Below, in pieces: positions 14,079 to 64,000 of a stretch of DNA of 64,000 nucleotides. The translations under genes and the position numbers were made by a program. The stretch's first letter is position 1; the number at the start of each line of letters is the position of its first letter. Origin of the DNA: Squalus acanthias. Its lineage: Eukaryota. The stretch is taken from the NCBI GenBank assembly GCA_030390025.1, contig CM059436.1, forward strand, positions 93,868,001-93,932,000, in the 5' to 3' direction. The notes beneath the pieces were generated by a model, which was not told the DNA's origin, did no database searches, and saw only the letters and a program-made list of their open reading frames with translations.

Positions 14079-14168
14079 ACATTTTAAAAGCACTATATAA
14101 ATGCAAGTTGTTGTTACTGTTGTATGATTGTCAGCAACTATCTTGATATAAAACCACATTTTATCTTT

Positions 14169-17967: not shown

Positions 17968-18776
17968 CTGAAAGCAGAAAAGCACAAGAGTCGGGTTATG
18001 GTGAGGGAGCGGGGTGGGAGGGGGGGTGGGAGATATGCATGTATACAGCATCAGCAGCTTGAAAGTGAGAAGAGATTGTGCCTTCATGTCAATGACTTTT
18101 ACTTGAACCTTAAAGACGAGCCATCTGGGATCCCTGAAGAGTGTCAAATTCAATAGTAGCTCCCATATCTGCTGCCCAATGCCTCCAGATCCGTTACATA
18201 TGGCGATGGTTGCAAGCAGTTTAGCAGAGAGTTGCAGACCATGTATTGTTTTCCCCTACACAGGAGCTCCGTAAGTTGAACATGAACTGTGAAAAGGTAG
18301 GTGTTCATTTCCCGTATTTCCTTTGCTTTGCTCAGTAGTGTGCAATACATTGGTTGCAGTTGAAAACTCATAAGAAAAGAGTAGTTTCTGCTTCGTTTCA
18401 GCATCCACGGTATTTTGCATTGAGGAGTGTTGGGTGCTGCTGCTTTGAAGGACAAGGAACTCGGGTAATGCGGTATTTTAAAGCATCTAAGGACGTTGTT
18501 TTCATTATCACAGGCATGCTTACAGAGCTATCAGGGCATGCGAAGGACACTCTCGAGAACATGGGAAAGCGATGGCTCAGCTACCAGAGCAATGAGAAAC
18601 ACACTAGTAAAGCATCCAGAGTGAAAAGAGCTACCAACGTAACGCTATCTACATTCAGCAGCTTTTTTTGGGTCAATTTTGCACTTCTGGAAAGCCTGCC
18701 TGACCGTCCACAAACAATGCTTGAACACTCAAGCCTCTTACAAACAGCAATCAAAGTACTAAGCACTTGACTTCTA

Positions 18777-18791
18777 TCTATTTTTCCACAC
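18777..18791 (-). terminator. snRNA 3' box (copy 1; present in every unit)
   Basis: Minus-strand GTGTGGAAAAATAGA about 10 nt downstream of the U5 3' stem; resembles the consensus GTTYN0-3AAARRYAGA. Confidence 0.75.
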
Positions 18792-18800
18792 TTGATGGCA

Positions 18801-18914
18801 AACCCGACTAATGTCAGGCATTAAAAAAATTCTTTCAATCTCTAAACCAATTCTCTCCACGGAAATCTTTAGTAAAAGGCGAAAGATTTATACGATATGA
18901 GAGAACTTAGAGTT
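18801..18914 (-). ncRNA. RNU5: U5 spliceosomal snRNA, copy 1
   Basis: Minus strand contains AAATCTTTCGCCTTTTACTAAAGATTTCCGTGGAGAG (U5 stem 1c, loop 1 GCCUUUUAC, IL2 CCG), an Sm site and the 3' hairpin GCCTGAC-ATTA-GTCGGGT. One-nt deletion in the 5' stem. Confidence 0.93.
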
Positions 18915-18958
18915 AAATAGGTAGTATCATGGGGTTCCTGGCAAGGTGCGAGAGCTGT

Positions 18959-18976
18959 CTCCTAAAGCCATGGTGA
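18959..18976 (-). promoter_or_regulatory. Proximal sequence element, PSE (copy 1; present in every unit)
   Basis: Minus-strand TCACCATGGCTTTAGGAG at -62 to -45 from the inferred start; vertebrate PSE-like; no TATA box, consistent with Pol II. Confidence 0.85.
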
Positions 18977-19117
18977 CAAATCAACAGCACTCCTATCGAT
19001 TCTGAATACGAAAAGACAGCAACTTGAAGGGCTCTAAATCACCGGAATCGCTGTTGAAACCACCAGAAAATTGAGCGCAACAGGCAGCGCTCGTTTCAAC
19101 TGCAAATCCTGCATGAT

Positions 19118-19153
19118 ATGCAAATTCATAGGTGAACATTGCATTGTGGGCAA
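19118..19153 (-). promoter_or_regulatory. Distal sequence element: octamer plus SPH/ZNF143 site (copy 1; present in every unit)
   Basis: ATGCAAAT at 19118-19125 (about -205 to -210) and minus-strand TTGCCCACAATGCAATG at 19137-19153. Confidence 0.85.
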
Positions 19154-20293
19154 ACTTATTTCCTCCGGGTTAAAGTCGGAGCTCAATGTCTTGCACAGAA
19201 GCTGCGTTGAAATGCTAAAGTCGCAGGCACGCCTGGTCACACTTTGAACTCCAAAACATTTGTGTCAAAATGCTAAATGCTTTTCTATGTTTTAGCTTGG
19301 GATTGGTTGCTTTAATTCAATCACAGTCCAAAAAGAGCTAAAGAACCAGAATCACTGACAGAAATAACACCCTTGCTTAACTGCGTACAATGTTTCGTCG
19401 TTGACGTCGCCTGTCACCAGTCGCCTGTCACTATTTCTTTCTTATGTTCTTAGGCAGCTTGCCTGAGGAAGGAGCGAAGCCGCACAATTCAAAAGGAAAC
19501 ATTTCTTCAGGTTATGTGTGTGATTGGCAGCTAATTTGAATGGAATGGACAATTTTTTATTGAAAACAATAGGCCTTCATGTCAATGACTTTTACTTGGA
19601 ACCTTCAAAGACAATCCATCTGGGATCCCTGAAGAGTGTCAAAATAAAATAGATAGCTCCCATAGCTGTTGAGAAAAGCCAAAGAGATCCGTTACATATG
19701 GCGATGGATTGCAAGCAGTTTAGCAGAGAGTTGCAGACCATGTATTGTTTTCCCTACACAGGGAGCTCGTAAAGTTGAACATGAACTGTGAAAAGGTAGG
19801 TGTTAATTTCCCGTTATTTCCTTGCTTGCTCAGTAGTGTGCAATACATTGGTTTGGCAGTTGAAAACTCATAAGAAAGAGAGTTTTCTGCTTCGTTTCAG
19901 CATCCACGGTATTTTGCATTTGTAGGAGTGTTGTGCTGCTGCTTTGAAGACAAGGAACCTCGGGATAGATGCGGTATTTAAAGCAATCTAAGGACGTTGT
20001 TTCATTATCACAGGCATGCTTACAGAGCTATCAGGCATGCGAAGACACTCTCGAGAACATGGGAAGCGATGGCTCAGCTACCAGAGCAATGAGAAACACA
20101 AGCTAAAAGCATCCAGAGTGAAAAAGAGCTACCAACGTAACGCTATCTACATTCAGCAGCTTTTTTTTGGGTCAATTTTGCACTCTGAAAGCCTGCTGAC
20201 GTCACAACAATGCTTGAACACTCAAGCCTCTTACAAACAGCAATCAAAGTACTAAGCACTTGACTTCTATCTATTTTTCCACACTTGATGGCA

Positions 20294-20408
20294 AACCCGA
20301 CTAATGTCAGGCATTAAAAAAATTCTTTCAATCTCTAAACCAATTCTCTCCACGGAAATCTTTAGTAAAAGGCGAAAGATTTATACGATATGAAGAGAAC
20401 TTAGAGTT
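20294..20408 (-). ncRNA. RNU5: U5 snRNA, copy 2
   Basis: Full U5 with loop 1; Sm AAUUUUUUUAA. Confidence 0.95.
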
Positions 20409-21800
20409 AAATAGGTTAGTATCATGGGGTTCCTGGCAAGGTGCGAGAGCTGTCTCCTAAAGCCATGGTGACAAATCAACAGCACTCCTATCGATTCTGA
20501 ATACGAAAAGACAGCAACTTGAAGGGCTCTAAATCACCCCGGAATCGCTGTTGAAACCACCAGAAAATTGAGCGCAACAGGCAGCGCTCGTTTCAACTGC
20601 AAATCCTGCATGATATGCAAATTCATAGGTGAACATTGCATTGTGGGCAAACTTATTTCCTCCGGGTTAAAGTCGGAGCTCAATGTCTTGCACAGAAGCT
20701 GCGTTGAAATGCTAAAGTCGCAGGCACGCCTGGTCACACTTTGAACTCCAAAACATTTGTGTCAAAATGCTAAATGCTTTTCTATGTTTTAGCTTGGGAT
20801 TGGTTGCTTTAATTCAATCACAGTCCAAAAAGAGCTAAAGAACCAGAATCACTGACAGAAATAACACCCTTGCTTAACTGCGTACAATGTTTCGTCGTTG
20901 ACGTCGCCTGTCACCAGTCGCCTGTCACTATTTCTTTCTTATGTTCTTAGGCAGCTTGCCTGAGGAAGGAGCGAAGCCACACAATTCAAAAGGAAACATT
21001 TCTTCAGGTTATGTGTGTGATTGGCAGCTAAATTTGAATGGAATGGACAATTTTTTAATTGAAAACAATAGGCCTTCATGTCAATGACTTTTACTTGGAA
21101 CCTTCAAAGACAATCCATCTGGGATCCCTGAAGAGTGTCAAATAAAATAGATAGCTCCCATAGCTGTTGAGAAAAGCCAAAGAGATCCGTTACATATGGC
21201 GATGGATTGCAAGCAGTTTAGCAGAGAGTTGCAGACCATGTATTGTTTTCCCCTACACAGGGAGCTCGTAAAGTTGAACATGAACTGTTGAAAAGGTAGG
21301 TGTTAATTTCCCGTTATTTCCTTGCTTGCTCAGTAGTGTGCAATACCATTGGTTTGGCAGTTGAAAACTCATAAGAAAGAGTAGTTTTCTGCTTCGTTTC
21401 AGCATCCACGGTATTTTGCATTTGTAGGAGTGTTGTGCTGCAGCTTTGAAGACAAGGAACTCGGGATAGATGCGGTATTTAAAGCAATCTAAGGGACGTT
21501 GTTTTCCATTATCACAGGCATGCTTACAGAGCTATCAGGGCAATGCGAAGACACTCTCGAGAAACATGGGAAGCGATTGGCTCAGCTACCAGAGCAATGA
21601 GAAACACAAGCTAAAAGCATCCAGAGTGAAAAGAGCTACCAACGTAACGCTTATCTACATTCAGCCGCTTATTTTGGGTCAATTTTGCACTTCTGAAAGC
21701 CTGCTGACGTCACAACAATGCCTGAACACTCAAGCCTCTTACAAACCGCAATCAAAGTACTAAGCACTTGACTTCTATCTATTTTTCACACTTGATGGCA

Positions 21801-21915
21801 AACCCGACTAATGTCAGGCATTAAAAAAATTCTTTCAATCTCTAAACCAATTCTCTCCACGGAAATCTTTAGTAAAAGGCGAAAGATTTATACGATATGA
21901 AGAGAACTTAGAGTT
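21801..21915 (-). ncRNA. RNU5: U5 snRNA, copy 3
   Basis: Full U5; Sm AAUUUUUUUAA. Confidence 0.95.
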
Positions 21916-23302
21916 AAATAGGTAGTATCATGGGGTTCCTGGCAAGGTGCGAGAGCTGTCTCCTAAAGCCATGGTGACAAATCAACAGCACTCCTATCGA
22001 TTCTGAATACGAAAAGACAGCAACTTGAAGGGCTCTAAATCACCGGAATCGCTGTTGAAACCACCAGAAAATGAGCGCAACAGGCAGCGCTCGTTCAACT
22101 GCAAATCCTGCATGATATGCAAATTCATAGGTGAACATTGCATTGTGGGCAAAACTTATTTCCTCCGGGTTAAAGTCGGAGCTCAATGTCATGCACAGAA
22201 GCTGCGTTGAAATGCTAAAGTCGCAGGCACGCCTGGTCACACTTTGAACTCCAAAAACATTTGTGTCAAAATGCTAAATGCTTTTCTATGTTTTAGCTTG
22301 GGATTGGTTGCTTTAATTCAATCACAGTCCAAAAAGAGCTAAAGAACCAGAATCACTACAGAAATAACACCCTTGCTTAACTGCGTACAATGTTTCGTCG
22401 TCTGACCGTCGCCTGTCACCAGTCGCCTGTCACTATTTCTTTCTTATGTTCTTAGGCAGCTTGCCTGAGGAAGGAGCGAAGCCCACAATTCAAAAGGAAA
22501 CATTTCTTCAGGTTATGTGTGTGATTGGCAGCTAAATTTGAATGGAATGGACAATTTTTTAATTGAAAACAATAGCCTTCATGTCAATGACTTTTACTTG
22601 GAACCTCAAAGACAATCCATCTGGGATCCTGAAGAGTGTCAAATAAAATAGATAGCTCCCATAGCTGTTGAGAAAAGCCAAAGAGATCCGTTACATATGG
22701 CGATGGATTGCAAGCAGTTTAGCAGAGAGTTGCAGACCATGTATTGTTTTCCCCCTACACAGGGAGCTCGTTAAGGTTGCACATGAACTGTGAAAAGGTA
22801 GGTGTTAATTTCCCGTTACTTTCCTTGCTTGCTCAGTAGTGTGCAATACATTTGGTTTGGCAGTTGAAAACTCATAAAGAAAGAGTAGTTCTTCTGCTTC
22901 GTTTCAGCATCCACGGTATTTTGCATTTGTAGGAGTGTTGTGCTGCTGCTTTGAAGACAAGGAACTCGGGATAGATGCGGTATTTAAAGCAATCTAAGGA
23001 CGTTGTTTTCATTATCACAGGCATGCCTTACAGAGCTATCAGGGCATGCGAAGACACTCTCGAGAACATGGGAAGCGATGGCTCAGCTACCAGAGCAATG
23101 AGAAACACAAGCTATAAGCATCCAGAGTGAAAAGAGCTACCAACGTAACGCTATCTACATTCAGCAGCTTTTTTTGGTGTCAATTTTGCACTTCTGAAAG
23201 CCTGCTGACATCACAACAATGCTTGAACACTCAAGCCTCTTACAAACAGCAATCAAAGTACTAAGCACTTGACTTCTGTCTATTTTTCCACACTTGATGG
23301 CA

Positions 23303-23416
23303 AACCCGACTAATGTCAGGCATTAAAAAATTCTTTCAATCTCTAAACCAATTCTCTCCACGGAAATCTTTAGTAAAAGGCGAAAGATTTATACGATATG
23401 AAGAGAACTTAGAGTT
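23303..23416 (-). ncRNA. RNU5: U5 snRNA, copy 4
   Basis: U5; Sm U-run one base shorter. Confidence 0.93.
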
Positions 23417-24795
23417 AAATAGGTAGTATCATGGGGTTCCTGGCAAGGTGCGAGAGCAGTCTCCTAAAGCCATGGTGACAAATCACAGCACTCCTATCGA
23501 TTCTGAATACGAAAAGACAGCACCTTGGAAGGGCTCTAAATCAACCGGAATCGCTGTTGAAACCACCAGAAAATTGAGCGCAACAGGCAGCGCTCGTTTC
23601 AACTGCAAATCCTGCATGATATGCAATTCATAGTGAACATTGCATTGTGGGCAAACTATTTCCTCCGGGTTAAAGTCGGAGCTCAATGTCTTGCACAGAA
23701 GCTGCGTTGAATGCTAAAGTCGCAGGCACGCCTGGTCACACTTTGAACTCCAAAACATTTGTGTCAAAATGCTAAATGCTTTTCTATGTTTTAGCTTGGG
23801 GATTGGTTGCTTTAATTCAATCACAGTCCAAAAAGAGCTAAAGAACCAGAACACTGACAGAAATAACACCCTTGCTTAACTGCGTACAATGTTTCGTCGT
23901 TGACCGTCGCCTGTCACCAGTCGCCTGTCACTATTTCTTTCTTATGTTCTTAGCAGCTTGCCTGAGGAAGGAGCGAAGCCGCACCAATTCAAAAGAAACA
24001 TTTCTTCAGGTTATGTGTGTGATTGGCAGCTAAATTCGAATGGACAGGACAATTTTTTAATTGAAAAACAATAGGCCTTCATGTCAATGACTTTTACTTG
24101 GAACCTTCAAAGACAATCCATCTGGGATCCCTGAAGAGTGTCAAATAAATAGATAGCTCCCATAGCTGTTGAGAAAAGCCAAAGAGATCCTTACATATGG
24201 CGATGGATTGCAAGCAGTTTAGCAGAGAGTTGCAGACCATGTATTGTTTTCCCCTACACAGGGAGCTCGTAAAGTTGAACATGAACTGTGAAAAGGAAGG
24301 TGTTAATTTCCCGTTATTTCCTTGCTTGCTCAGTAGTGTGCAATACATTGGTTTGGCAGTTGAAAACTCATAAGAAAGCGTAGTTTTCTGCTTCGTTTCA
24401 GCATCCACGGTATTTTGCATTTGTAGGAGTGTTGTGCTGCTGCTTTGAAGACAAGGAACTCGGGATAGATGCGGTATTTAAAGCAATCTAAGGACTTTGT
24501 TTTCATTATCACAGGCATGCTTTACAGAGCTATCAAGGGCATGCGAAGACTCTCTCGAGAACATGGGAAGCGATGGCTCAGCTACCAGAGCAATGAGAAA
24601 CACAAGCCTAAAAGATCCAGAGTGAAAAGAGCTACCAACGTAACGCTATCTACATTCAGCAGCTTTTTTTGGGTCAATTTTGCACTTCTGAAAGCCTGCT
24701 GACGTCACAACAATGCTTGAACACTCAAGCCTCTTACAAACAGCAATCAAAGTACTAAGCACTTGACTTCTATTATTTTCCACACATGATGGGCA

Positions 24796-24909
24796 AACCC
24801 GACTATGTCAGGCATTAAAAAAATTCTTTCAATCTCTAAACAATTCTCTCCACGGAAATCTTTTCGTAAAAGGCGAAAGATTTATACGATATGAAGAGAA
24901 CTTAGAGTT
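24796..24909 (-). ncRNA. RNU5: U5 snRNA, copy 5
   Basis: U5 with several 1-nt indels; G after loop 1. Confidence 0.9.
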
Positions 24910-26300
24910 AAATAGGTAGTATCATGGGGTTCCTGGCAAGGTGCGAGAGCTGTCTCCTAAAGCCATGGTGACAAATCAACAGCACTCCTATCGATTCTGA
25001 ATACGAAAAGACAGCAACTTGAAGGGCTCTAAATCACCGGAATCGCTGTTGAAACCACCAGAAAATTGAGCGCAACAGGCAGCGCTCGTTTCAACTGCAA
25101 ATCCTGCATGATATGCAAATTCATAGGTGAACATTGCATTGTGGGCAAACTTATTTCCTCCGGGTTAAAGTCGGAGCTCAATGTCTTGCACAGAAGCTGC
25201 GTTGAAATGCTAAAGTCGCAGGGCACGCCTGGTCACACTTTGAACTCAAAAACATTTGTGTCAAAATGCTAATTGCTTTTCTATGTTTTAGCTTGGGATT
25301 GGTTGCTTTAATTCAATCACAGTCCAAAAAGAGCTAAAGAACCAGAATCACTGACAGAAATAACACCCCTTGCTTAACTGCGTACAATGTTTCGTCGTTG
25401 ACGTCGCCTGTCACCAGTCGCCTGTCACTATTTCTTTCTTATGTTCTTAGGCAGCTTGCCTGAGGAAGGAGCGAAGCCGCACAATTCAAAAGGAAACATT
25501 TCTTCAGGTTATGTGTGTGATTGGCAGCTAAATTTGAATGGAATGGACAATTTTTTAATTGAAAACAATAGGCCTTCATGTCAATGACTTTTACTTGGAA
25601 CCTTCAAAGACAATCCATCTGGGATCCCTGAAGGTGTCAAATAAAATAGATTAGCTCCCATAGCTGTTGAGAAAAGCCAAAGAGATCCGTTACATATGGG
25701 CGATGGATTGCAGCAGTTTAGCAGAGAGTTGCAGACCATGTATTGTTTTCCCCCTACACAGGGAGCTCGTAAAGTTGAACATGAACTGTGAAAAGGTAGG
25801 TGTTAATTTCCCGTTATTTCCTTGCTTGCTCAGTAGTGTGCAATACATTGGTTTTGGCAGTTGAAAACTCATAAGAAAGAGTAGTTTTCTGCTTCGTTTC
25901 AGCATCCACGGTATTTTGCATTTGTAGGAGTGTTGTGCTGCTGCTTTGAAGGACAAGGAACTCGGGATAGATGCGGGTATTTATATGCAATCTAGGACGT
26001 TGTTTTCATTATCACAGGCATGCTTACAGAGCTATCAGGGCATGCGAAGACACCTCTCGAGAACATGGGAAGCGATGGCTCAGTACCAGAGCAATGAGAA
26101 ACACAAGCTAAAAGCATCCAGAGTGAAAAGAGCTAACCAACGATAACGCTATCTACATTCAGCAGCTTTTTTTGGGTCAATTTTGCACTTCTGAAAGCCT
26201 GCTGACGTCACAACAATGCTTGAACACTCAAGCCTCTTACAAACAGCAATCAAGTACTAAGCACTTGACTTCAATTCTATTTTTCCACACTTGATGGCAA

Positions 26301-26412
26301 AACCCGACTAATGTCAGGCATTAAAAAAATTCTTCAATCTCTAAACAATTCTCTCCACGGAAATCTTTAGTAAAAGGCGAAAGTTTATACGATATGAAGA
26401 GAACTTAGAGTT
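26301..26412 (-). ncRNA. RNU5: U5 snRNA, copy 6
   Basis: U5 with three 1-nt deletions. Confidence 0.9.
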
Positions 26413-27803
26413 AAATAGGTAGTATCATGGGGTCATCTGGCAAGGTGCGAGAGCTGTCTCCTAAAGCACATGGTGACAAATCAACAGCACTCCTATCGAT
26501 TCTGAATACGAAAAGACAGCAACTTGAAGGGCTCTAAATCACCGGAATCGGCTGTTGAAACCACCAGAAAATTGTGCGCAACAGGCAGCGCTCGTTTCAA
26601 CTGCAAATCCTGCATGATATGCAAATCATAGGTGAACATTGCATTGTGGGCAAACTTATTTCCTCCGGGTTAAAGTCGGAGCTCAATGTCTTGCACAGAA
26701 GCTGCGTTTGAAATGCTAAAGTCGCAGGCACGCCTGGTCACACTTTGAACTCCAAAACATTTGTGTCAAAATGCTAAATGCTTTTCTATGTTTTAGCTTG
26801 GGATTGGTTTGCTTTAATTCAATCACAGTCCAAAAAGAGCTAAAGAACCAGAATCACTGACAGAAATAACACCCTTGCTTAACTGGCGTACAATGTTTCG
26901 TCGTTGACGTCGCCTGTCACCAGTCGCCCTGTCACTATTTCTTTCTTATGTTCTTAGGCAGCTTGCCTGAGGAAGGAGCGAAGCCGCACAATTCAAAAGG
27001 AAACATTTTCTTCAGGTTATGTGTGTGATTGGCAGCCTAAATTTGAATGGAATGGACAATTTTTTAATTGAAACAATAGGCCTTCATGTCAATGACTTTA
27101 CTTGGAACCTTCAAAGACAATCCATCTGGGATCCCTGAAGAGTGTCAAATAAAATAGATAGCTCCCATAGCTGTTGAGAAAAGCCAAAGAGATTCCGTTA
27201 CATATGGCGATGATTGCAAGCAGTTTAGCAGAGAGTTGCAGACCATGTATTGTTTTCCCCTACACAGGGAGCTCGTAAAGTTGAACATGAACTGTGAAAA
27301 GGTAGGTGTTAATTTCCCGTTATTCCTTGCTTGCTCAGTAGTGTGCAATACATTGGTTTGGCAGTTGAAAACTCATAAGAAAAGAGTAGTTTTCTGCTTC
27401 GTTTCAGCATCCACGGTATTTTGCATTTGTAGGAGTGTTGTGCTGCTGCTTTGAAGACAAGGAACTCGGGATAGATGCGGTATTTAAAGCAATCTAAGGA
27501 CGTTGTTTTCATTATCACAGGCATGCTTACAGAGCTATCAGGGCATCGCGAAGACACTCTCGAGAACATGGGAAGCGATGGCTCAGCTACCAGAGCAATG
27601 AGAAACACAAGCTAAAAGCATCCAGAGTGAAAAGAGCTACCAACGTAACGCCTATCTACATTCAGCAGCTTTTTTTGGTCAATTTTGCACTTCTGAAAGC
27701 CTGCTGACGTCACAAACAATGCTTGAAACACTCAAGCCTCTTACAAACAGCAATCAAAGTACTAAGCACTTGACTTCTATCTATTTTTCCACACTTGATG
27801 GCA

Positions 27804-27917
27804 AACCCGACTAATGTCAGGCATTAAAAAATTCTTTCAATCTCTAAACCAATTCTCTCCACGGAAATCTTTAGTAAAAGGCGAAAGATTTATACGATAT
27901 GAAGAGAACTTAGAGTT
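27804..27917 (-). ncRNA. RNU5: U5 snRNA, copy 7
   Basis: U5; Sm U-run one base shorter. Confidence 0.93.
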
Positions 27918-29292
27918 AATAGGTAGTATCATGGGGTTCTGGCAAGGTGCGAGAGCTGTCTCCTAAAGCCATGGTGACAAATCAACAGCACTCCTATCGA
28001 TTCTGAATACGAAAAGACAGCAACTTGAAGGGCTCTAAATCACCGGAATCGCTGTGAAACCACCAGAAAATTGAGCGCAACAGGCAGCGCTCGTTTCAAC
28101 TGCAAATCCTGCATGATATGCAAATTCATAGGTGAACATTGCATTGTGGGCAAACTTATTTCCTCCGGGTTAAAGTCGGAGCTCAATGTCTTGCACAGAA
28201 GCTGCGTGTGAAATGCTAAAGTCGCAGGCACGCCTGGTCACACTTTGAACTCCAAAACATTTGTGTCAAAATGCTAAATGCTTTTCTATGTTTTAGCTTG
28301 GGATTGGTTGCTTTAATTCAATCACAGTCCAAAAAGAGCTAAAGAACCAGAATCACTGACAGAAATAACACCCTTGCTTAACTGCGTACAATGTTTCGTC
28401 GTTGACGTCGCCTGTCACCAGTCGCCTGTCACTATTTCTTTCTTATGTTCTTAGGCAGCTTGCCTGAGGAAGGAGCGAAGCCGCACAATTCAAAAGGAAA
28501 CATTTCTTCAGGTTATGTGTGTGATTGGCAGCTAATTTTGAATGGAATGGACAATTTTTTAATTGAAACAATAGGCTTCATGTCAATGACTTTTACTTGG
28601 AACCTTCAAAGACAATCCATCTGGGATCCCTGAAGAGTGTCAATAAAATAGATAGCTCCCATAGCTGTTGAGAAAAGCCAAAGAGATCCGTTACATATGG
28701 CGATGGATTGCAAGCAGTTTAGCAGAGAGTTGCAGACCATGTATTGTTTTCCCCTACACAGGGAGCTCGTAAAGTTGAACATGAACTGTGAAAAGGTAGG
28801 TGTTAATTTCCCGTTATTTCCTTGCTTGCTCAGTAGTGTGCAATACATTGGTTTGGCAGTGAAAACTCATAAGAAAGAGTAGTTTTCTGCTTCGTTTCAG
28901 CATCCACGGTATTTTGCATTTGTAGGAGTGTTGTGCTGCTGCTTTGAAGGACAAGGAACTCGGGATAGATGCGGTATTTAAGCAATCTAAGGACGTTGTT
29001 TTCATTATCACAGGCATGCTTACAGAGCTATCAGGGCATGCGAAGACACTCTCGAGAACATGGGAAGCGATGGCTCAGCTACCAGAGCAATGAGAAACAC
29101 AAGCTAAAAGCATCCAGAGTGAAAAGAGCTACCAACGTAAGCTATCTACATTCAGCAGCTTTTTTTGGGTCAATTTTGCACTTCTGAAAGCCTGCTGACG
29201 TCACAACAATGCTTGAACACTCAAGCCTCTTACAAACAGCAATCAAAGTACTAAGCACTTGACTTCTGTCTATTTTTCCACACTTGATGGCA

Positions 29293-29406
29293 AACCCGAC
29301 TAATGTCAGGCATTCAAAAAATTCTTTCAATCTCTAAACCAATTCTCTCCACGGAAATCTTTCGTAAAAGGCGAAAGATTTATACGATATGAAGAGAACT
29401 AGAGTT
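29293..29406 (-). ncRNA. RNU5: U5 snRNA, copy 8
   Basis: U5; Sm AAUUUUUUGAA; G after loop 1. Confidence 0.93.
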
Positions 29407-30790
29407 AAATAGGTAGTATCATGGGGTTCCTGGCAAGGTGCGAGAGCTGTCTCCTAAAGCCATGGTGACAAATCAACAGCACTCCTATCGATTCTGAATA
29501 CGAAAAGACAGCAACTTGAAGGGCTCTAAATCACCGGAATCGCTGTTGAAACCACCAGAAAATTGAGCGCAAGAGGCAGCGCTCGTTTCAACTGCAATCC
29601 TGCATGATATGCAAATTCATAGGTGAACATTGCATTGTGGGCAAACTTATTTCCTCCAGGGTTAAAGTCGGGAGCTCAATGTCTTGCACAGAAGCTGCGT
29701 TGAAATGCTAAAGTCGCAGGCACGCCTGGTCACACTTTGAACTCCAAAACATTTGTGTCAAAATGCTAAATGCTTTTCTATGTTTTAGCTTGGGATTGGT
29801 TGCTTTAATTCAATCACAGTCCAAAAAGAGCTAAAGAACCAGAATCACTGACAGAAATAACACCCTTGCTTAACTGCGTACAATGTTTCGTCGTTGACGT
29901 CGCCTGTCACCAGTCGCCTGTCACTATTTCTTTCTTATGTTCTTAGGCAGCTGCCTGAGGAAGGAGCGAAGCCGCCACAATTCAAAAGGAAACATTTCTT
30001 CAGGTTATGTGTGTGATTGGCAGCTAAATTTGAATGGAATGGACAATTTTTTAATGAAAACAATAGGCCTTCATGTCAATGACTTTTACTTGGAACCTTC
30101 AAAGACAATCCATCTGGGATCCCTGAAGAGTGTCAAATAAAATAGATAGCTCCCATAGCTGTTGAGAAAAGCCAAAGAGATCCGTTACATATGGCGATGG
30201 ATTGCAAGCAGTTTAGCAGAGTGTTGCAGACCATGTATTGTTTTCCCCTACACAGGGAGCTCGTAAAGTTGAACATGAACTGTGAAAAGGTAGGTGTTAA
30301 TTTCCCGTTATTTCCTTGCTTGCTCAGTAGTGTGCAATACTTGGTTTGGCAGTTGAAAACTCATAAGAAAGAGTAGTTTTCTGCTTCGTTTCAGCATCCA
30401 CGGTATTTGCATTTGTAGGAGTGTTGTGCTGCTGCTTTGAAGACAAGGAACTCGGGATAGATGCGGTATTTAAAGCAATCTTAAGGACGTTGTTTTTCAT
30501 TATCACAGGCATGCTTACAGAGCTATCAGGGCATGCGAAGACACTCTCGAGAACATGGGAAGCGATGGCTCAGCTACCAGAGCAATGAGAAACACAAGCT
30601 AAAAGCATCCAGAGTGAAAAGAGCTACCAACGTAACGCTATCTACATTCAGCAGCTTTTTTTGGGGTCAATTTTTGCACTTCTGAAAGCCTGCTGACGTC
30701 ACAACAATGCTTGAACACTCAAGCCTCTTACAAACAGCAATCAAAGTACTAAGCACTTGACTTCTGTCTATTTTTCCACACTTGATGGCA

Positions 30791-30905
30791 AACCCGACTA
30801 ATGTCAGGCATTAAAAAAATTCTTTCAATCTCTAAACCAATTCTCTCCACGGAAATCTTTAGTAAAAGGCGAAAGATTTATACGATATGAAGAGAACTTA
30901 GAGTT
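30791..30905 (-). ncRNA. RNU5: U5 snRNA, copy 9
   Basis: Full U5; Sm AAUUUUUUUAA. Confidence 0.95.
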
Positions 30906-32285
30906 AAATAGGTAGTATCATGGGGTTCCTGGCAAGGTGCGAGAGCTGTCTCCTAAAGCCATGGTGACAAATCAACAGCACTCCTATCGATTCTGAATAC
31001 GAAAAGACAGCAACTTGAAGGGCTCTAAATCACCGGAATCGCTGTTGAAACCACCAGAAAATTGAGCGCAACAGGCAGCGCTCGTTTCAACTGCAAATCC
31101 TGCATGATATGCAAATTCATAGGTGAACATTGCATTGTGGGCAAACTTATTTCCTCCGGGTTAAAGTCGGAGCTCAATGTCTTGCACAGAAGCTGCGTTG
31201 AAATGCTAAAGTCGCAGGCACGCCTGGTCACACTTTGAACTCCAAAACATTTGTGTCAAATGCTAAATGCTTTTCTATGTTTTAGCTTGGGATTGGTTGC
31301 TTTAATTCAATCACAGTCCAAAAAGAGCTAAAGAACCAGAATCACTGACAGAAATAACACCCTTGCTTAACTGCGTACAATGTTTCGTCGTTTGACGTCG
31401 CCTGTCACCAGTCGCCTGTCACTATTTCTTTCTTATGTTCTTAGGCAGCTTGCTGAGGAAGGAGCGAAGCCGCACAATTCAAAAGGAAACATTTCTTCAG
31501 GTTATGTGTGTGATTGGCAGCTAAATTTGAATGGAATGGACAATTTTTTAATTGAAAACAATAGGCCTTCATGTCAATGACTTTTACTTGGAACCTTCAA
31601 AGACAATCCATCTGGGATCCCTGAAGAGTGTCAAATAAAATAGATAGCTCCCATAGCTGTTGAGAAAAGCCAAAGAGATCCGTTACATATGGCGATGGAT
31701 TGCAAGCAGTTTAGCAGAGAGTTGCAGACATGTATTGTTTTCCCCTACACAGGGAGCTCGTAAAGTTGCACATGAACTGTGAAAAGGTAGGTGTTAATTT
31801 CCCGTTATTTCCTTGCTTGCTCAGTAGTGTGCAATACATTGGTTTGGCAGTTGAAAACTCATAAGAAAGAGTAGTTTTCTGCTTCGTTTCAGCATCCACG
31901 GTATTTTGCATTTGTAGGAGTGTTGTGCTGCTGCTTTGAAGACAAGGAACTCGGGATAGATGCGGTATTTAAAGCAATCTAAGGACGTTGTTTTCATTAT
32001 CACAGGCCTGCCTACAGAGCTATCAGGGCATGCGAAGACACTCTCGAGAACATGGGAAGCGATGGCTCAGCTACCAGAGCAATGAGAAACACAAGCTAAA
32101 GCATCCAGAGTGAAAAGAGCTACCAACGTAACGCTATCTACATTCAGCAGCTTTTTTTTGGGTCAATTTTGCACTTCTGAAAGCCTGCTGACGTCACAAC
32201 AATGCTTGAACACTCAAGCCTCTTACAAACAGCAATCAAAGTACTAAGCACTTGACTTCTATCTATTTTTCCACACTTGATGGCA

Positions 32286-32399
32286 AACCCGACTAATGTC
32301 AGGCATTAAAAAAATTCTTTCAATCTCTAAACCAATTCTCTCCACGGAAATCTTTCGTAAAAGGCGAAAGATTATACGATATGAAGAGAACTTAGAGTT
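32286..32399 (-). ncRNA. RNU5: U5 snRNA, copy 10
   Basis: U5; Sm AAUUUUUUUAA; G after loop 1. Confidence 0.93.
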
Positions 32400-33782: not shown

Positions 33783-33897
33783 AACCCGACTAATGTCAGG
33801 CATTAAAAAAATTCTTTCAATCTCTAAACCAATTCTCTCCACGGAAATCTTTCGTAAAAGGCGAAAGATTTATACGATATGAAGAGAACTTAGAGTT
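33783..33897 (-). ncRNA. RNU5: U5 snRNA, copy 11
   Basis: U5; Sm AAUUUUUUUAA; G after loop 1. Confidence 0.95.
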
Positions 33898-35279: not shown

Positions 35280-35394
35280 AACCCGACTAATGTCAGGCAT
35301 TCAAAAAATTCTTTCAATCTCTAAACCAATTCTCTCCACGGAAATCTTTCGTAAAAGGCGAAAGATTTATACGATATGAAGAGAACTTAGAGTT
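35280..35394 (-). ncRNA. RNU5: U5 snRNA, copy 12
   Basis: U5; Sm AAUUUUUUGAA; G after loop 1. Confidence 0.95.
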
Positions 35395-39773: not shown

Positions 39774-39888
39774 AACCCGACTAATGTCAGGCATTCAAAA
39801 AATTCTTTCAATCTCTAAACCAATTCTCTCCACGGAAATCTTTAGTAAAAGGCGAAAGATTTATACGATATGAAGAGAACTTAGAGTT
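39774..39888 (-). ncRNA. RNU5: U5 snRNA, copy 15
   Basis: Full U5; Sm AAUUUUUUGAA. Confidence 0.95.
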
Positions 39889-45756: not shown

Positions 45757-45871
45757 AACCCGACTAATGTCAGGCATTCAAAAAATTCTTTCAATCTCTA
45801 AACCAATTCTCTCCACGGAAATCTTTAGTAAAAGGCAAAAGATTTATACGATATGAAGAGAACTTAGAGTT
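45757..45871 (-). ncRNA. RNU5: U5 snRNA, copy 19
   Basis: U5; Sm AAUUUUUUGAA; C>U just 5' of loop 1 GCCUUUUAC. Confidence 0.95.
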
Positions 45872-54735: not shown

Positions 54736-54850
54736 AACCCGACTAATGTCAGGCATTAAAAAAATTCTTTCAATCTCTAAACCAATTCTCTCCACGGAAA
54801 TCTTTAGTAAAAGGCGAAAGATTTATACGATATGAAGAGAACTTAGAGTT
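54736..54850 (-). ncRNA. RNU5: U5 snRNA, copy 25
   Basis: Full U5; Sm AAUUUUUUUAA. Confidence 0.95.
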
Positions 54851-56232
54851 AAATAGGTAGTATCATGGGGTTCCTGGCAAGGTGCGAGAGCTGTCTCCTA
54901 AAGCCATGGTGACAAATCAACAGCACTCCTATCGATTCTGAATACGAAAAGACAGCAACTTGAAGGGCTCTAAATCACCGGAATCGCTGTTGAAACCACC
55001 AGAAAATTGAGCGCAACAGGCAGCGCTCGTTTCAACTGCAAATCCTGCATGATATGCAAATTCATAGGTGAACATTGCATTGTGGGCAAACTTATTTCCT
55101 CCGGGTTAAAGTCGGAGCTCAATGTCTTGCACAGAAGCTGCGTTGAAATGCTAAAGTCGCAGGCACGCCTGGTCACACTTTGAACTCCAAAACATTTGTG
55201 TCAAAATGCTAAATGCTTTTCTATGTTTTAGCTTGGGATTGGTTGCTTTAATTCAATCACAGTCCAAAAAGAGCTAAAGAACCAGAATCACTGACAGAAA
55301 TAACACCCTTGCTTAACTGCGTACAATGTTTCGTCGTTGACGTCGCCTGTCACCAGTCGCCTGTCACTATTTCTTTCTTATGTTCTTAGGCAGCTTGCCT
55401 GAGGAAGGAGCGAAGCCGCACAATTCAAAAGGAAACATTTCTTCAGGTTATGTGTGTGATTGGCAGCTAAATTTGAATGGAATGGACAATTTTTTAATTG
55501 AAAACAATAGGCCTTCATGTCAATGACTTTTACTTGGAACCTTCAAAGACAATCCATCTGGGATCCCTGAAGAGTGTCAAATAAAATAGATAGCTCCCAT
55601 AGCTGTTGAGAAAAGCCAAAGAGATCCGTTACATATGGCGATGGATTGCAAGCAGTTTAGCAGAGAGTTGCAGACCATGTATTGTTTTCCCCTACACAGG
55701 GAGCTCGTAAAGTTGAACATGAACTGTGAAAAGGTAGGTGTTAATTTCCCGTTATTTCCTTGCTTGCTCAGTAGTGTGCAATACATTGGTTTGGCAGTTG
55801 AAAACTCATAAGAAAGAGTAGTTTTCTGCTTCGTTTCAGCATCCACGGTATTTTGCATTTGTAGGAGTGTTGTGCTGCTGCTTTGAAGACAAGGAACTCG
55901 GGATAGATGCGGTATTTAAAGCAATCTAAGGACGTTGTTTTCATTATCACAGGCATGCTTACAGAGCTATCAGGGCATGCGAAGACACTCTCGAGAACAT
56001 GGGAAGCGATGGCTCAGCTACCAGAGCAATGAGAAACACAAGCTAAAAGCATCCAGAGTGAAAAGAGCTACCAACGTAACGCTATCTACATTCAGCAGCT
56101 TTTTTTGGGTCAATTTTGCACTTCTGAAAGCCTGCTGACGTCACAACAATGCTTGAACACTCAAGCCTCTTACAAACAGCAATCAAAGTACTAAGCACTT
56201 GACTTCTATCTATTTTTCCACACTTGATGGCA

Positions 56233-57729: not shown

Positions 57730-57844
57730 AACCCGACTAATGTCAGGCATTCAAAAAATTCTTTCAATCTCTAAACCAATTCTCTCCACGGAAATCTTTC
57801 GTAAAAGGCGAAAGATTTATACGATATGAAGAGAACTTAGAGTT
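57730..57844 (-). ncRNA. RNU5: U5 snRNA, copy 27
   Basis: U5; Sm AAUUUUUUGAA; G after loop 1. Confidence 0.95.
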
Positions 57845-59226
57845 AAATAGGTAGTATCATGGGGTTCCTGGCAAGGTGCGAGAGCTGTCTCCTAAAGCCA
57901 TGGTGACAAATCAACAGCACTCCTATCGATTCTGAATACGAAAAGACAGCAACTTGAAGGGCTCTAAATCACCGGAATCGCTGTTGAAACCACCAGAAAA
58001 TTGAGCGCAAGAGGCAGCGCTCGTTTCAACTGCAAATCCTGCATGATATGCAAATTCATAGGTGAACATTGCATTGTGGGCAAACTTATTTCCTCCGGGT
58101 TAAAGTCGGAGCTCAATGTCTTGCACAGAAGCTGCGTTGAAATGCTAAAGTCGCAGGCACGCCTGGTCACACTTTGAACTCCAAAACATTTGTGTCAAAA
58201 TGCTAAATGCTTTTCTATGTTTTAGCTTGGGATTGGTTGCTTTAATTCAATCACAGTCCAAAAAGAGCTAAAGAACCAGAATCACTGACAGAAATAACAC
58301 CCTTGCTTAACTGCGTACAATGTTTCGTCGTTGACGTCGCCTGTCACCAGTCGCCTGTCACTATTTCTTTCTTATGTTCTTAGGCAGCTTGCCTGAGGAA
58401 GGAGCGAAGCCGCACAATTCAAAAGGAAACATTTCTTCAGGTTATGTGTGTGATTGGCAGCTAAATTTGAATGGAATGGACAATTTTTTAATTGAAAACA
58501 ATAGGCCTTCATGTCAATGACTTTTACTTGGAACCTTCAAAGACAATCCATCTGGGATCCCTGAAGAGTGTCAAATAAAATAGATAGCTCCCATAGCTGT
58601 TGAGAAAAGCCAAAGAGATCCGTTACATATGGCGATGGATTGCAAGCAGTTTAGCAGAGAGTTGCAGACCATGTATTGTTTTCCCCTACACAGGGAGCTC
58701 GTAAAGTTGAACATGAACTGTGAAAAGGTAGGTGTTAATTTCCCGTTATTTCCTTGCTTGCTCAGTAGTGTGCAATACATTGGTTTGGCAGTTGAAAACT
58801 CATAAGAAAGAGTAGTTTTCTGCTTCGTTTCAGCATCCACGGTATTTTGCATTTGTAGGAGTGTTGTGCTGCTGCTTTGAAGACAAGGAACTCGGGATAG
58901 ATGCGGTATTTAAAGCAATCTAAGGACGTTGTTTTCATTATCACAGGCATGCTTACAGAGCTATCAGGGCATGCGAAGACACTCTCGAGAACATGGGAAG
59001 CGATGGCTCAGCTACCAGAGCAATGAGAAACACAAGCTAAAAGCATCCAGAGTGAAAAGAGCTACCAACGTAACGCTATCTACATTCAGCAGCTTTTTTT
59101 GGGTCAATTTTGCACTTCTGAAAGCCTGCTGACGTCACAACAATGCTTGAACACTCAAGCCTCTTACAAACAGCAATCAAAGTACTAAGCACTTGACTTC
59201 TGTCTATTTTTCCACACTTGATGGCA

Positions 59227-60723: not shown

Positions 60724-60838
60724 AACCCGACTAATGTCAGGCATTCAAAAAATTCTTTCAATCTCTAAACCAATTCTCTCCACGGAAATCTTTCGTAAAA
60801 GGCGAAAGATTTATACGATATGAAGAGAACTTAGAGTT
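60724..60838 (-). ncRNA. RNU5: U5 snRNA, copy 29
   Basis: U5; Sm AAUUUUUUGAA; G after loop 1. Confidence 0.95.
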
Positions 60839-62220
60839 AAATAGGTAGTATCATGGGGTTCCTGGCAAGGTGCGAGAGCTGTCTCCTAAAGCCATGGTGA
60901 CAAATCAACAGCACTCCTATCGATTCTGAATACGAAAAGACAGCAACTTGAAGGGCTCTAAATCACCGGAATCGCTGTTGAAACCACCAGAAAATTGAGC
61001 GCAAGAGGCAGCGCTCGTTTCAACTGCAAATCCTGCATGATATGCAAATTCATAGGTGAACATTGCATTGTGGGCAAACTTATTTCCTCCGGGTTAAAGT
61101 CGGAGCTCAATGTCTTGCACAGAAGCTGCGTTGAAATGCTAAAGTCGCAGGCACGCCTGGTCACACTTTGAACTCCAAAACATTTGTGTCAAAATGCTAA
61201 ATGCTTTTCTATGTTTTAGCTTGGGATTGGTTGCTTTAATTCAATCACAGTCCAAAAAGAGCTAAAGAACCAGAATCACTGACAGAAATAACACCCTTGC
61301 TTAACTGCGTACAATGTTTCGTCGTTGACGTCGCCTGTCACCAGTCGCCTGTCACTATTTCTTTCTTATGTTCTTAGGCAGCTTGCCTGAGGAAGGAGCG
61401 AAGCCGCACAATTCAAAAGGAAACATTTCTTCAGGTTATGTGTGTGATTGGCAGCTAAATTTGAATGGAATGGACAATTTTTTAATTGAAAACAATAGGC
61501 CTTCATGTCAATGACTTTTACTTGGAACCTTCAAAGACAATCCATCTGGGATCCCTGAAGAGTGTCAAATAAAATAGATAGCTCCCATAGCTGTTGAGAA
61601 AAGCCAAAGAGATCCGTTACATATGGCGATGGATTGCAAGCAGTTTAGCAGAGAGTTGCAGACCATGTATTGTTTTCCCCTACACAGGGAGCTCGTAAAG
61701 TTGAACATGAACTGTGAAAAGGTAGGTGTTAATTTCCCGTTATTTCCTTGCTTGCTCAGTAGTGTGCAATACATTGGTTTGGCAGTTGAAAACTCATAAG
61801 AAAGAGTAGTTTTCTGCTTCGTTTCAGCATCCACGGTATTTTGCATTTGTAGGAGTGTTGTGCTGCTGCTTTGAAGACAAGGAACTCGGGATAGATGCGG
61901 TATTTAAAGCAATCTAAGGACGTTGTTTTCATTATCACAGGCATGCTTACAGAGCTATCAGGGCATGCGAAGACACTCTCGAGAACATGGGAAGCGATGG
62001 CTCAGCTACCAGAGCAATGAGAAACACAAGCTAAAAGCATCCAGAGTGAAAAGAGCTACCAACGTAACGCTATCTACATTCAGCAGCTTTTTTTGGGTCA
62101 ATTTTGCACTTCTGAAAGCCTGCTGACGTCACAACAATGCTTGAACACTCAAGCCTCTTACAAACAGCAATCAAAGTACTAAGCACTTGACTTCTGTCTA
62201 TTTTTCCACACTTGATGGCA

Positions 62221-62335
62221 AACCCGACTAATGTCAGGCATTCAAAAAATTCTTTCAATCTCTAAACCAATTCTCTCCACGGAAATCTTTCGTAAAAGGC
62301 GAAAGATTTATACGATATGAAGAGAACTTAGAGTT
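62221..62335 (-). ncRNA. RNU5: U5 snRNA, copy 30
   Basis: U5; Sm AAUUUUUUGAA; G after loop 1. PSE 62380-62397, octamer 62539-62546, SPH 62558-62574, 3' box 62197-62211. Confidence 0.95.
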
Positions 62336-63717
62336 AAATAGGTAGTATCATGGGGTTCCTGGCAAGGTGCGAGAGCTGTCTCCTAAAGCCATGGTGACAA
62401 ATCAACAGCACTCCTATCGATTCTGAATACGAAAAGACAGCAACTTGAAGGGCTCTAAATCACCGGAATCGCTGTTGAAACCACCAGAAAATTGAGCGCA
62501 ACAGGCAGCGCTCGTTTCAACTGCAAATCCTGCATGATATGCAAATTCATAGGTGAACATTGCATTGTGGGCAAACTTATTTCCTCCGGGTTAAAGTCGG
62601 AGCTCAATGTCTTGCACAGAAGCTGCGTTGAAATGCTAAAGTCGCAGGCACGCCTGGTCACACTTTGAACTCCAAAACATTTGTGTCAAAATGCTAAATG
62701 CTTTTCTATGTTTTAGCTTGGGATTGGTTGCTTTAATTCAATCACAGTCCAAAAAGAGCTAAAGAACCAGAATCACTGACAGAAATAACACCCTTGCTTA
62801 ACTGCGTACAATGTTTCGTCGTTGACGTCGCCTGTCACCAGTCGCCTGTCACTATTTCTTTCTTATGTTCTTAGGCAGCTTGCCTGAGGAAGGAGCGAAG
62901 CCGCACAATTCAAAAGGAAACATTTCTTCAGGTTATGTGTGTGATTGGCAGCTAAATTTGAATGGAATGGACAATTTTTTAATTGAAAACAATAGGCCTT
63001 CATGTCAATGACTTTTACTTGGAACCTTCAAAGACAATCCATCTGGGATCCCTGAAGAGTGTCAAATAAAATAGATAGCTCCCATAGCTGTTGAGAAAAG
63101 CCAAAGAGATCCGTTACATATGGCGATGGATTGCAAGCAGTTTAGCAGAGAGTTGCAGACCATGTATTGTTTTCCCCTACACAGGGAGCTCGTAAAGTTG
63201 AACATGAACTGTGAAAAGGTAGGTGTTAATTTCCCGTTATTTCCTTGCTTGCTCAGTAGTGTGCAATACATTGGTTTGGCAGTTGAAAACTCATAAGAAA
63301 GAGTAGTTTTCTGCTTCGTTTCAGCATCCACGGTATTTTGCATTTGTAGGAGTGTTGTGCTGCTGCTTTGAAGACAAGGAACTCGGGATAGATGCGGTAT
63401 TTAAAGCAATCTAAGGACGTTGTTTTCATTATCACAGGCATGCTTACAGAGCTATCAGGGCATGCGAAGACACTCTCGAGAACATGGGAAGCGATGGCTC
63501 AGCTACCAGAGCAATGAGAAACACAAGCTAAAAGCATCCAGAGTGAAAAGAGCTACCAACGTAACGCTATCTACATTCAGCAGCTTTTTTTGGGTCAATT
63601 TTGCACTTCTGAAAGCCTGCTGACGTCACAACAATGCTTGAACACTCAAGCCTCTTACAAACAGCAATCAAAGTACTAAGCACTTGACTTCTATCTATTT
63701 TTCCACACTTGATGGCA

Positions 63718-63832
63718 AACCCGACTAATGTCAGGCATTAAAAAAATTCTTTCAATCTCTAAACCAATTCTCTCCACGGAAATCTTTAGTAAAAGGCGAA
63801 AGATTTATACGATATGAAGAGAACTTAGAGTT
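63718..63832 (-). ncRNA. RNU5: U5 snRNA, copy 31
   Basis: Full U5; Sm AAUUUUUUUAA; the distal element lies beyond the window edge. Confidence 0.95.
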
Positions 63833-64000
63833 AAATAGGTAGTATCATGGGGTTCCTGGCAAGGTGCGAGAGCTGTCTCCTAAAGCCATGGTGACAAATC
63901 AACAGCACTCCTATCGATTCTGAATACGAAAAGACAGCAACTTGAAGGGCTCTAAATCACCGGAATCGCTGTTGAAACCACCAGAAAATTGAGCGCAAGA

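Follow-up and report, generated by a model that had tools for sequence, protein, structure and literature searches.

A tandem repeat carrying U5 alone was reportedly described in Xenopus laevis by Kazmaier, Tebb and Mattaj in 1987, with a PSE and an octamer and with expression in oocytes, and its unit is said to be about 0.6 kb, far shorter than that of the shark array reported here. The primate RNU2 array resembles the shark array in being composed of concertedly evolving single-gene snRNA units, which are about 6 kb long and carry U2, not U5. In teleosts, U2-U5 tandem arrays occur in Plectorhinchus, Moronidae, Engraulidae and Oreochromis and U1-U2-U5 arrays in Soleidae (PMC3464664), and egg-specific expression has been demonstrated for maternal-type U5 of zebrafish (10.1101/858944). 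Here we describe an array of U5 genes in Squalus acanthias.

Results

The window, i.e. the whole stretch of 64,000 nucleotides analysed, contains a head-to-tail tandem array running from position 18080 to the window edge (about 46 kb), with one minus-strand U5 gene per unit (Table 1). The consensus unit is 1,497 bp, and 31 unit starts follow from 18080 at spacings of 1493–1508 bp, giving 30 whole units and 1,005 bp of unit 31; spacing and consensus thus agree with the preliminary description, which had reported 1,497-bp units head to tail over 46 kb and past the window edge. Its count of at least 31 complete units stood for the U5 genes, of which there are 31, but not for the units, since 30 are whole and the enhancer of unit 31 lies outside the window. 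None of the 31 units was interrupted by a retrotransposon. Tandem Repeats Finder did not report the array because its longest period was 500.

Table 1. Positions of the features in the window (unit numbers count from 18080; cis-element numbering takes the A at 39888 as +1)
Feature	Position	Strand	Basis or remark
Harbinger (HARBI1-like, DDE_Tnp_4) transposase	15420..16553	+	one in-frame stop, no frameshift
Harbinger second (Myb-type) gene, 3' part	17372..18076	-	homology stops at array boundary
U5 array, 30 whole units and partial 31st, continuing beyond window	18080..64000	-	Rfam matches, unit spacing
Array terminus, positions 1-111 of unit 1	18080..18190	.	13 substitutions
Units 1-12, many private 1-bp indels	18080..36055	.	
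Unit 15 (shown as example; loop 1 and Sm site standard)	39053..40548	-	
3' box, unit 15, 9 nt after 3' end	39750..39764	-	one mismatch to PMC2582628 consensus
U5 coding sequence, unit 15	39774..39889	-	93.1 bits
Sm site, AU6G allele, unit 15	39795..39804	-	13/31 copies
Invariant loop-1 9-mer GCCUUUUAC, unit 15	39845..39853	-	31/31 copies
PSE, unit 15, -62 to -45	39933..39950	-	motif position
Octamer of distal element, unit 15, -211 to -204	40092..40099	-	motif position
SPH/ZNF143-like site adjoining octamer, unit 15	40111..40126	-	resemblance only
U5 of unit 25, AU7A Sm site without consensus G	54736..54851	-	allele count
U5 of unit 27, U46G allele at window base 57800	57730..57845	-	predicted 7-nt loop 1
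Partial unit 31	62996..64000	-	includes PSE and 3' box; distal element off window
U5 of unit 31	63718-63833	-	Rfam match

Scanning the whole window with Rfam returned 31 matches at or above the gathering threshold, all of them to U5 (RF00020) on the minus strand, spanning model positions 1–117 and scoring 72.9–93.1 bits against a cut-off of 40. The Rfam U5 check proposed earlier was therefore positive for every copy at full length, and the array genes are confirmed as U5 snRNA at the level of sequence. The loop-1 9-mer GCCUUUUAC, previously noted as invariant in the minus-strand U5, was present in 31/31 copies, and folding of four copies recovered the predicted U5 fold (z −3.2 to −5.0), with loop 1 on its predicted stem and a 7-bp hairpin as predicted 3' terminal stem-loop in all four. 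The best copies agree with Rfam at 29 of 31 upper-case consensus positions and, in the Rfam alignment, retain the CCG of the internal loop, which is protein-binding in U5 (PMC4065371). The colinear first base of U5 is U in all copies, and the transcript of unit 15 likely starts at the A at 39888 or 39892.

A second RNA gene per unit, as in teleosts, was rejected, since no other RNA gene (U1, U2 or 5S) was found in unit 26 (next Rfam match, E 0.17) and no tRNA in the whole window. A coding spacer was likewise rejected: clean units have few long open stretches (two stop-free stretches of at least 80 aa per unit), and the 142-aa frame in unit 1 had no Pfam match. Origin of the spacer from the adjacent Harbinger element or flank repeats found nothing substantial in its favour either, as blastn of one unit against window positions 1–18079 gave short matches alone (best E 0.28) and tblastn of four Harbinger proteins against the array gave no match at E<10.

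The cis-elements largely lay where the preliminary description had placed them. The PSE, reported at −62 to −45, begins at −62 in 28/31 units and at −60 to −64 in the other three. The octamer, reported at about −205 to −210, lies at −211 to −204 in clean units and is exact in 28/31 units (28 of the 30 including it), being altered in units 4 and 13 and off the window in unit 31; the 3' box, reported about 10 nt downstream, follows the U5 3' end by 9–10 nt in 31/31 units. These counts across units used the window's own motifs and show homogeneity only. In unit 26, the published 3' box consensus (PMC2582628, also the source of the expected positions of snRNA gene elements; one mismatch allowed) occurred once, at the expected place (chance 0.0016, 20,000 shuffles), as did the octamer (chance 0.0024, 20,000 shuffles), and a loose PSE pattern, written after the site was seen, gave one gene-strand match, at −62 (chance 0.0095). 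An SPH/Staf pattern did not match unit 26 with up to two mismatches; a lookalike site lies at −238, and the SPH/ZNF143-like site claimed beside the octamer was thus reduced to a resemblance. As PSE, octamer and 3' box all lie at published positions, the motif evidence supports the standard vertebrate Pol II snRNA gene layout, in line with the earlier claim. The observed/expected ratio of CpG fell from 0.78 across promoter and gene to 0.55 in the spacer and to 0.42 in the flank.

The U5 RNAs had been called complete, which held for their length in 31/31 copies but not for their conserved positions, as only 7/31 combine the standard C36 and U46 with a standard Sm site. The bases closing loop 1 were C36/U46 in 22 copies, U36/U46 in one and C36/G46 in 8 (units 5, 8, 10, 11, 12, 27, 29 and 30). 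For C36/G46 the predicted pairing probability was 1.0, so U46G is predicted to close loop 1 to a locked 7-nt form; whether loop 1 of U5 takes a 7-nt or an 11-nt form is under debate (PMC8283771). The Sm site consensus RAU3-6GR (PMC2582628) was found in 13/31 copies, all AU6G, and the consensus G was missing in 18/31 (AU7A, 14; AU6A, 3; AU5A, 1). At the 5' end, where Rfam has a conserved UG at positions 7–8, G8 was absent in all copies, position 8 being A with a deletion there in unit 8, and in the predicted fold the distal internal loop is closed on this side. The missing G8 is one conserved base and alone is not family-defining. The shared alleles are unlikely to be random error because they occur in noisy and clean parts of the array alike.

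Mean pairwise identity was 99.6% in units 13–30, with the spacer as homogeneous as the gene, in agreement with the homogenised tandem array proposed before. Nine shared variant sites combine into many haplotypes, all 30 whole units differ, and all four haplotypes were seen at 13 of 36 variant-site pairs. Clustering of variants in neighbouring units, apparent by eye (1262 in units 17–19, 714 in units 22–23), was not significant, adjacent units showing no significant excess of similarity over randomly paired ones (p 0.058–0.35, 6 tests); the four-haplotype pattern could therefore reflect consensus mosaics instead of conversion, and the interior haplotypes may be such mosaics. The 139-bp stretch that runs from the start of the gene to the 3' box holds three of the nine shared variants (post hoc p 0.044), an excess that weakly fits the raised rate at which expressed snRNA genes mutate (PMC13484765). 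The 115 bp of the gene show no depletion of variation, with 2/9 shared variants vs 0.69 expected.

Regarding the private differences, 172 of 178 indels were 1 bp, 78 of 88 1-bp insertions duplicated an adjacent base, and transitions made up only 10 of 50 substitutions. Private indels fell with distance from the array edge, from 10–30 per unit in units 1–7 to 2 in total in units 20–31, and the adjacent transposase stretch of 1,134 bp had zero frameshifts against about 14 indels expected at the rate of units 1–7. Differences among the first ~12 units are probably uncorrected long-read error, and biological decay of units 2–12 at the edge was rejected since the indel profile and the flank without frameshift mark them as mostly technical. 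Unit 1 carries 13 substitutions in its first 111 positions vs 1 in the remaining 1,386, which represents either garbled reads or an old edge that escaped homogenisation. The gradient of errors suggests that the repeat was collapsed or polished unevenly, and copy number and unit order of the array in the assembly cannot be trusted.

The array adjoins a Harbinger element broken off inside its second gene, whose upstream part is absent from the window; the transposase shares 74% identity with a protein of Pristiophorus japonicus, and the best protein match reached 77%. This flank points to an elasmobranch host, as the preliminary description had supposed in proposing a probable shark genome. No reverse-strand copy of the presumed left end of the element, a 13-mer which we take to be its terminal repeat, was found in the window with up to two mismatches. 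Because the element is cut inside the second gene and has no reverse-strand left end in the window, a junction formed by Harbinger insertion into the array is unlikely, and this candidate was rejected. Transposon sequence lies at the flank junction both in primate RNU2, where it is an LTR, and in the shark array, where it is the cut Harbinger.

Discussion

We favour the reading, at a probability of roughly 0.55, that the array is a real multi-copy elasmobranch U5 locus raising U5 supply by gene dose. The roles of the octamer, PSE, 3' box, Sm site and loop 1 are well established, and each 1.5-kb unit would be a self-contained Pol II snRNA gene, in which the distal element (Oct-1, probably also ZNF143/Staf) and the PSE (SNAPc) would drive the start of a capped precursor, Integrator would cleave it just upstream of the 3' box, the Sm site would load Sm proteins and loop 1 would align exons within the spliceosome. 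Gene and spacer may stay alike through gene conversion together with unequal exchange, and sub-optimal alleles (the Sm site lacking its G, and U46G, which would lock the loop) would drift to intermediate frequency because selection on any single copy is weak. The working U5 pool would then come mainly from standard copies, the variant alleles probably being less active, and use of the array would be general rather than stage-specific.

This gene-dose reading is favoured by the 31 full-length RF00020 matches, the recovered fold with its intact CCG internal loop, the 3' box, octamer and PSE placed as in PMC2582628, each rare by chance, the spacer as homogeneous as the gene together with the four-haplotype pairs, the CpG ratio highest over promoter plus gene, weakly the enrichment of shared variants near the gene, and the precedent of teleost U2-U5 arrays (PMC3464664). 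It is disfavoured by the mere 7 of 31 copies with standard C36, U46 and Sm site, the missing G8 and the U at the colinear +1 in all copies, the gene not being depleted of variation, the lack of significant neighbour similarity and the unmatched SPH pattern.

A tentative alternative, drawn by analogy, is that a divergent U5 was amplified for the large egg and would serve oocyte and early embryo, separate dispersed somatic U5 genes being used in adults. Zebrafish has many maternal-type U1, U5 and U6 genes, most of them arranged in strict repeats, and few of the somatic types; maternal U5 is the most divergent yet keeps loop 1 and stem (10.1101/858944). Xenopus U1 isoforms differ between oocytes or embryos and adults (PMC4291461). 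The array U5 deviates from Rfam at its 5' end through the loss of G8 and retains loop 1 and stem. On this analogy an egg-specific role is plausible, and the narrower proposal that the array stocks the eggs of a cartilaginous fish with maternal-type U5, about a quarter of its copies carrying U46G with a fixed 7-nt loop 1, seems to us rather doubtful. Human U2 genes form a tandem array, which counts against taking tandem order as a mark of maternal use, and the promoter here has the ordinary octamer/PSE layout. Teleost U2-U5 arrays (PMC3464664) similarly indicate that tandem order alone is no sign of such use, and best copies of 93 bits agreeing at 29/31 consensus positions stand against the 41% difference between maternal and somatic U5 in zebrafish (10.1101/858944).

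We regard it as improbable that the array is silent or decaying, i.e. a U5 unit that once functioned, was amplified in the manner of a macrosatellite and has been homogenised by recombination alone. The Sm consensus G missing in 18/31 copies, the conserved U46 altered in 8/31, the fixed loss of G8, the lack of depletion of variants in the gene and the surrounding transposon debris would suit such an array, but the PSE, octamer and 3' box are intact together with loop 1, the stems and the spacing, 7 copies are fully standard and CpG is kept over the promoter. It is very improbable that a few real copies were unrolled by the assembler: the first 12 units each carry their own errors, as expected if long reads cross many units, and the nine shared sites form many haplotypes with 30/30 whole units distinct, although the private differences do look technical (1-bp indels, duplicated bases, few transitions, edge gradient) and the adjacent transposase lacks the frameshifts that ~14 indels at the rate of units 1–7 would bring. 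Such a pattern of errors and haplotypes more often reflects a collapsed, larger array.

The novelty of the locus had been rated too high, as tandem U5 genes were already described in teleosts (PMC3464664) and zebrafish (10.1101/858944). We found no description of an elasmobranch tandem U5 array in the open literature searched, nor any in passages of two shark-genome preprints and of PMC12054243, PMC2288978, PMC5786027, PMC7151599 and PMC8167085; the supplements to these preprints and to the zebrafish study may bear on novelty. Tandem U5 arrays are now extended to elasmobranchs, which would not surprise specialists in snRNA genes, and a 1.5-kb "satellite" liable to repeat-masking bears genes. 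The allele mix is more useful than the array itself: U46G bears on the debate over the 7-nt and 11-nt forms of loop 1 (PMC8283771), the Sm allele without G tests the strictness of core assembly, and both can be read in a single animal as allele ratios in DNA vs snRNP RNA. If the maternal reading were true, the dual maternal/somatic spliceosome of zebrafish would reach the other main branch of jawed vertebrates, and natural U46G would be an in vivo test of the need for an open 11-nt loop in splicing.

Compared with the teleost U2-U5 arrays, the shark array shares a tandem unit in the kilobase range, a U5 of 115 nt that has a PSE and a 3' box of its own, and low inter-copy variation, but its 1.5-kb unit carries U5 alone and no tRNA, and its octamer lies at the expected distance, whereas the teleost study reports none at the range it cites (PMC3464664). 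Like maternal-type U5 of zebrafish, it has many genes in strict repeats with loop 1 and stem unchanged; the zebrafish repeats are broken by retrotransposons, in contrast to 0/31 shark units (10.1101/858944). Human U5 belongs to the same RNA family and also has several variants coexisting, but it is the smallest of the major snRNA families, in which eight variants each exceed 1% of the total (PMC8457000), whereas the shark array repeats one type at least 31-fold.

Identity and organization of the array

When the full 64,000 bases were scanned with Rfam, U5 (RF00020) was the sole family found, with 31 matches on the minus strand covering the full model length at bit scores of 72.9–93.1 (gathering score, 40). 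The U5 identity assigned to the repeat in the preliminary description was thus borne out, and the array is real. Units were delimited by cutting the window at a recurring anchor sequence, which gave 31 unit starts, the first at 18080, with a spacing of 1493–1508 bp and a consensus of 1,497 bp. The loop-1 9-mer was present in 31/31 copies, and a search of the unit found no further RNA gene besides U5. At least 31 complete transcription units had been claimed; this stands for the U5 copies, but only 30 units are whole, the last having 1,005 bp within the window and its distal element beyond it.

Element positions in the unit fit the snRNA gene layout given in PMC2582628 (PSE at about −55, distal element at about −220 and 3′ box some 10 nt downstream). 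Unit 26 has a single occurrence each of the published 3′ box consensus (≤1 mismatch) and the octamer, both at the expected place (chance frequency 0.0016 and 0.0024, respectively, 20,000 shuffles). A lenient PSE pattern, composed after the site was known, matched at −62 (chance 0.0095), and an SPH pattern had no match in this unit. Of the four elements claimed, PSE, octamer and 3′ box were placed as expected; the SPH site remains a candidate by resemblance. The CpG observed/expected ratio was 0.78 over the promoter, against 0.55 for the spacer and 0.42 for the flank.

Coordinates of gene elements in array unit 15 and of the flanking transposon
Feature	Position	Strand
PSE, unit 15	39933–39950	−
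Octamer, unit 15	40092–40099	−
SPH-like site, unit 15	40111–40126	−
3′ box, unit 15	39750–39764	−
Harbinger transposon cut off at array start	15207–18079	

Variation among units

Private differences were counted across all 31 units (u01–u31 in window order) with unit 25 as the reference. There were 178 private indels, 172 of them 1 bp, and 50 private substitutions including 10 transitions; 78 of the 88 1-bp insertions copied the adjacent base. Indels numbered 10–30 per unit in u01–u07 and only 2 in total in u20–u31, and the neighboring transposase had zero frameshifts over 389 aligned residues, where the u01–u07 rate would predict about 14 indels. Since indels fade inward and the transposase next door is frameshift-free, we infer that the array-edge differences are uncorrected long-read error rather than decay. 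In u01, 13 substitutions fell in the first 111 positions and 1 in the other 1,386; this divergent start could be an old edge that homogenisation did not reach or, because 9/13 bunch within 20 bp, read garble. Unit u19 (45035–46531), in an otherwise clean part of the array, carries four private substitutions and zero indels, including C36U beside loop 1 and another between PSE and octamer, and is possibly a genuinely older copy.

Mean pairwise identity was 97.2% in u02–u12, 99.6% in u13–u30 and 99.7% in u20–u30, and all 30 whole units differed, with no identical pair. Nine variant sites were shared between units, a tenth (position 206, in two noisy units) being excluded as probable error. Seven of the nine are transversions, which is unusual for natural polymorphism and possibly a systematic base-calling effect. 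Four haplotypes were seen at 13/36 site pairs in u13–u30, and neighbor similarity was not significant against permuted unit orders (p = 0.058–0.35, six tests). This pattern is compatible with gene conversion but a collapsed consensus would fit too, so neither the order of the units nor their number, 31, can be relied on.

U5 RNA alleles

U5 was numbered from model position 1, colinear with the human loop-1 numbering (C36–U46) in PMC8283771. Seven of the 31 copies combine C36 and U46 with a standard Sm site; the remainder carry G46 with a standard Sm site (5/31), U46 with AU7A (11/31), G46 with AU7A (3/31), AU6A (3/31), AU5A (1/31) or U36 (1/31). The U46G allele thus occurs in 8/31 copies, and 18/31 do not match the Sm consensus RAU3-6GR of PMC2582628. 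Because AU7A (clean units u20, u25, u28 and u31) and G46 (u27, u29 and u30) are present in clean and noisy units alike, both alleles were taken as real, from assembly sequence rather than reads. U46 and the Sm-site G are both upper case in the Rfam consensus.

By folding, U46G is predicted to raise C36–G46 pairing from 0 to 1.0 and G37–C45 pairing from 0.64 to 0.98, lowering the fold energy by 6 kcal/mol and leaving a 7-nt loop. PMC8283771 describes a dispute over the size of loop 1: the 7-nt form predominates in cryo-EM models, and the authors of that paper argue that 3′ exon binding requires 11 nt. U46G (unit position 793, e.g. window position 57800) also makes the loop-1 stem a perfect 10-bp inverted repeat, as would be expected from template-switch mutation. 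The Sm allele shifts predicted accessibility slightly, from 0.58 to 0.50. Conserved G8 is replaced by A in all copies except u08, which has a deletion there, and the colinear +1 is U in all copies. The CCG-bearing internal loop to which U5 proteins bind (IL1 in yeast, IL2 in human; PMC4065371) is intact in aligned copies, and positions n.37–44, where human pathogenic RNU5B-1 variants concentrate (PMC13484765), are unaltered in array copies.

The left flank

The reading frame at 15387–16157 encodes a DDE_Tnp_4 transposase, whose best matches of 69 were HARBI1-like proteins from Pristiophorus (77%), Mobula, Narcine and Heptranchias, which makes an elasmobranch host very likely. The second Harbinger gene is matched by two Pristiophorus proteins, whose Pfam accessions we take to be Myb-type domains. 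Its homology, on the minus strand, reaches 18076 and stops at the array start, and its upstream part was not found within the window; the array therefore adjoins a truncated Harbinger. No matching right end was found within the window, and the element may enclose the array. Within the second-gene frame, a 42-bp tandem repeat (4.5 copies, 17199–17385) encodes a 14-residue repeat.

Farther left, a weak CPEB3 (HDV-like) ribozyme match at 14900–14972 (+; 23.5 bits, E = 0.027, below the gathering score of 35) may reflect a ribozyme linked to a retroelement or may have arisen by chance. A long inverted repeat of about 240–300 bp at 13530–13838, to which several miRNA families match below threshold on each strand (best E = 2e-11), resembles a pair of LINE 3′ tails that face each other. 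At 1490–6990 (−), several fragments of LINE reverse transcriptase, presumably CR1-like, lie stacked (RVT_1 E = 6e-6 at 2117–3028) and account for the strong strand skew at 2–6 kb, and a stretch at about 10000–10370 resembles a shark tRNA-derived SINE, putatively HE1-like.

Interpretation

We favor, with a probability of about 0.55, a transcribed multi-copy locus, in which the gene dose of many copies would supply U5, recombination would homogenise the copies, and variant alleles under weak selection would drift among them. Intact elements, promoter CpG retention and the variant excess from gene start to 3′ box hint weakly at transcription. A silent macrosatellite appears unlikely. The excess from gene start to 3′ box comprises 3/9 shared variants (p = 0.044, post hoc), with 2/9 in the gene alone (p = 0.15), and would loosely agree with expressed snRNA genes having a high mutation rate (PMC13484765).

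An array of the maternal type, i.e. of the egg and early-embryo snRNA class, is a tentative second reading; in zebrafish, the maternal genes for U1, U5 and U6 are likewise numerous and lie in strict repeats (10.1101/858944). Inflation of the array by assembly is very improbable; the true unit number may be larger than 31.

Comparison with known arrays

A Xenopus repeat with U5 only was reportedly described by Kazmaier in 1987. No elasmobranch U5 array was described among the open-literature matches listed, and a term search of two shark-genome preprints found no such array, one giving just a count of 1,221 snRNAs. Automated annotation would very likely label the copies as U5. Tandem U2–U5 arrays are described as usual among the fishes studied (PMC3464664), concerted evolution is described as general for multi-copy snRNA genes (PMC4291461), and of the major snRNA families in human, U5 is the smallest (PMC8457000). 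Tandem U5 is already known in kind and this array adds a member, its interest resting mostly on the alleles that segregate at loop 1 and the Sm site and on the maternal-type possibility.
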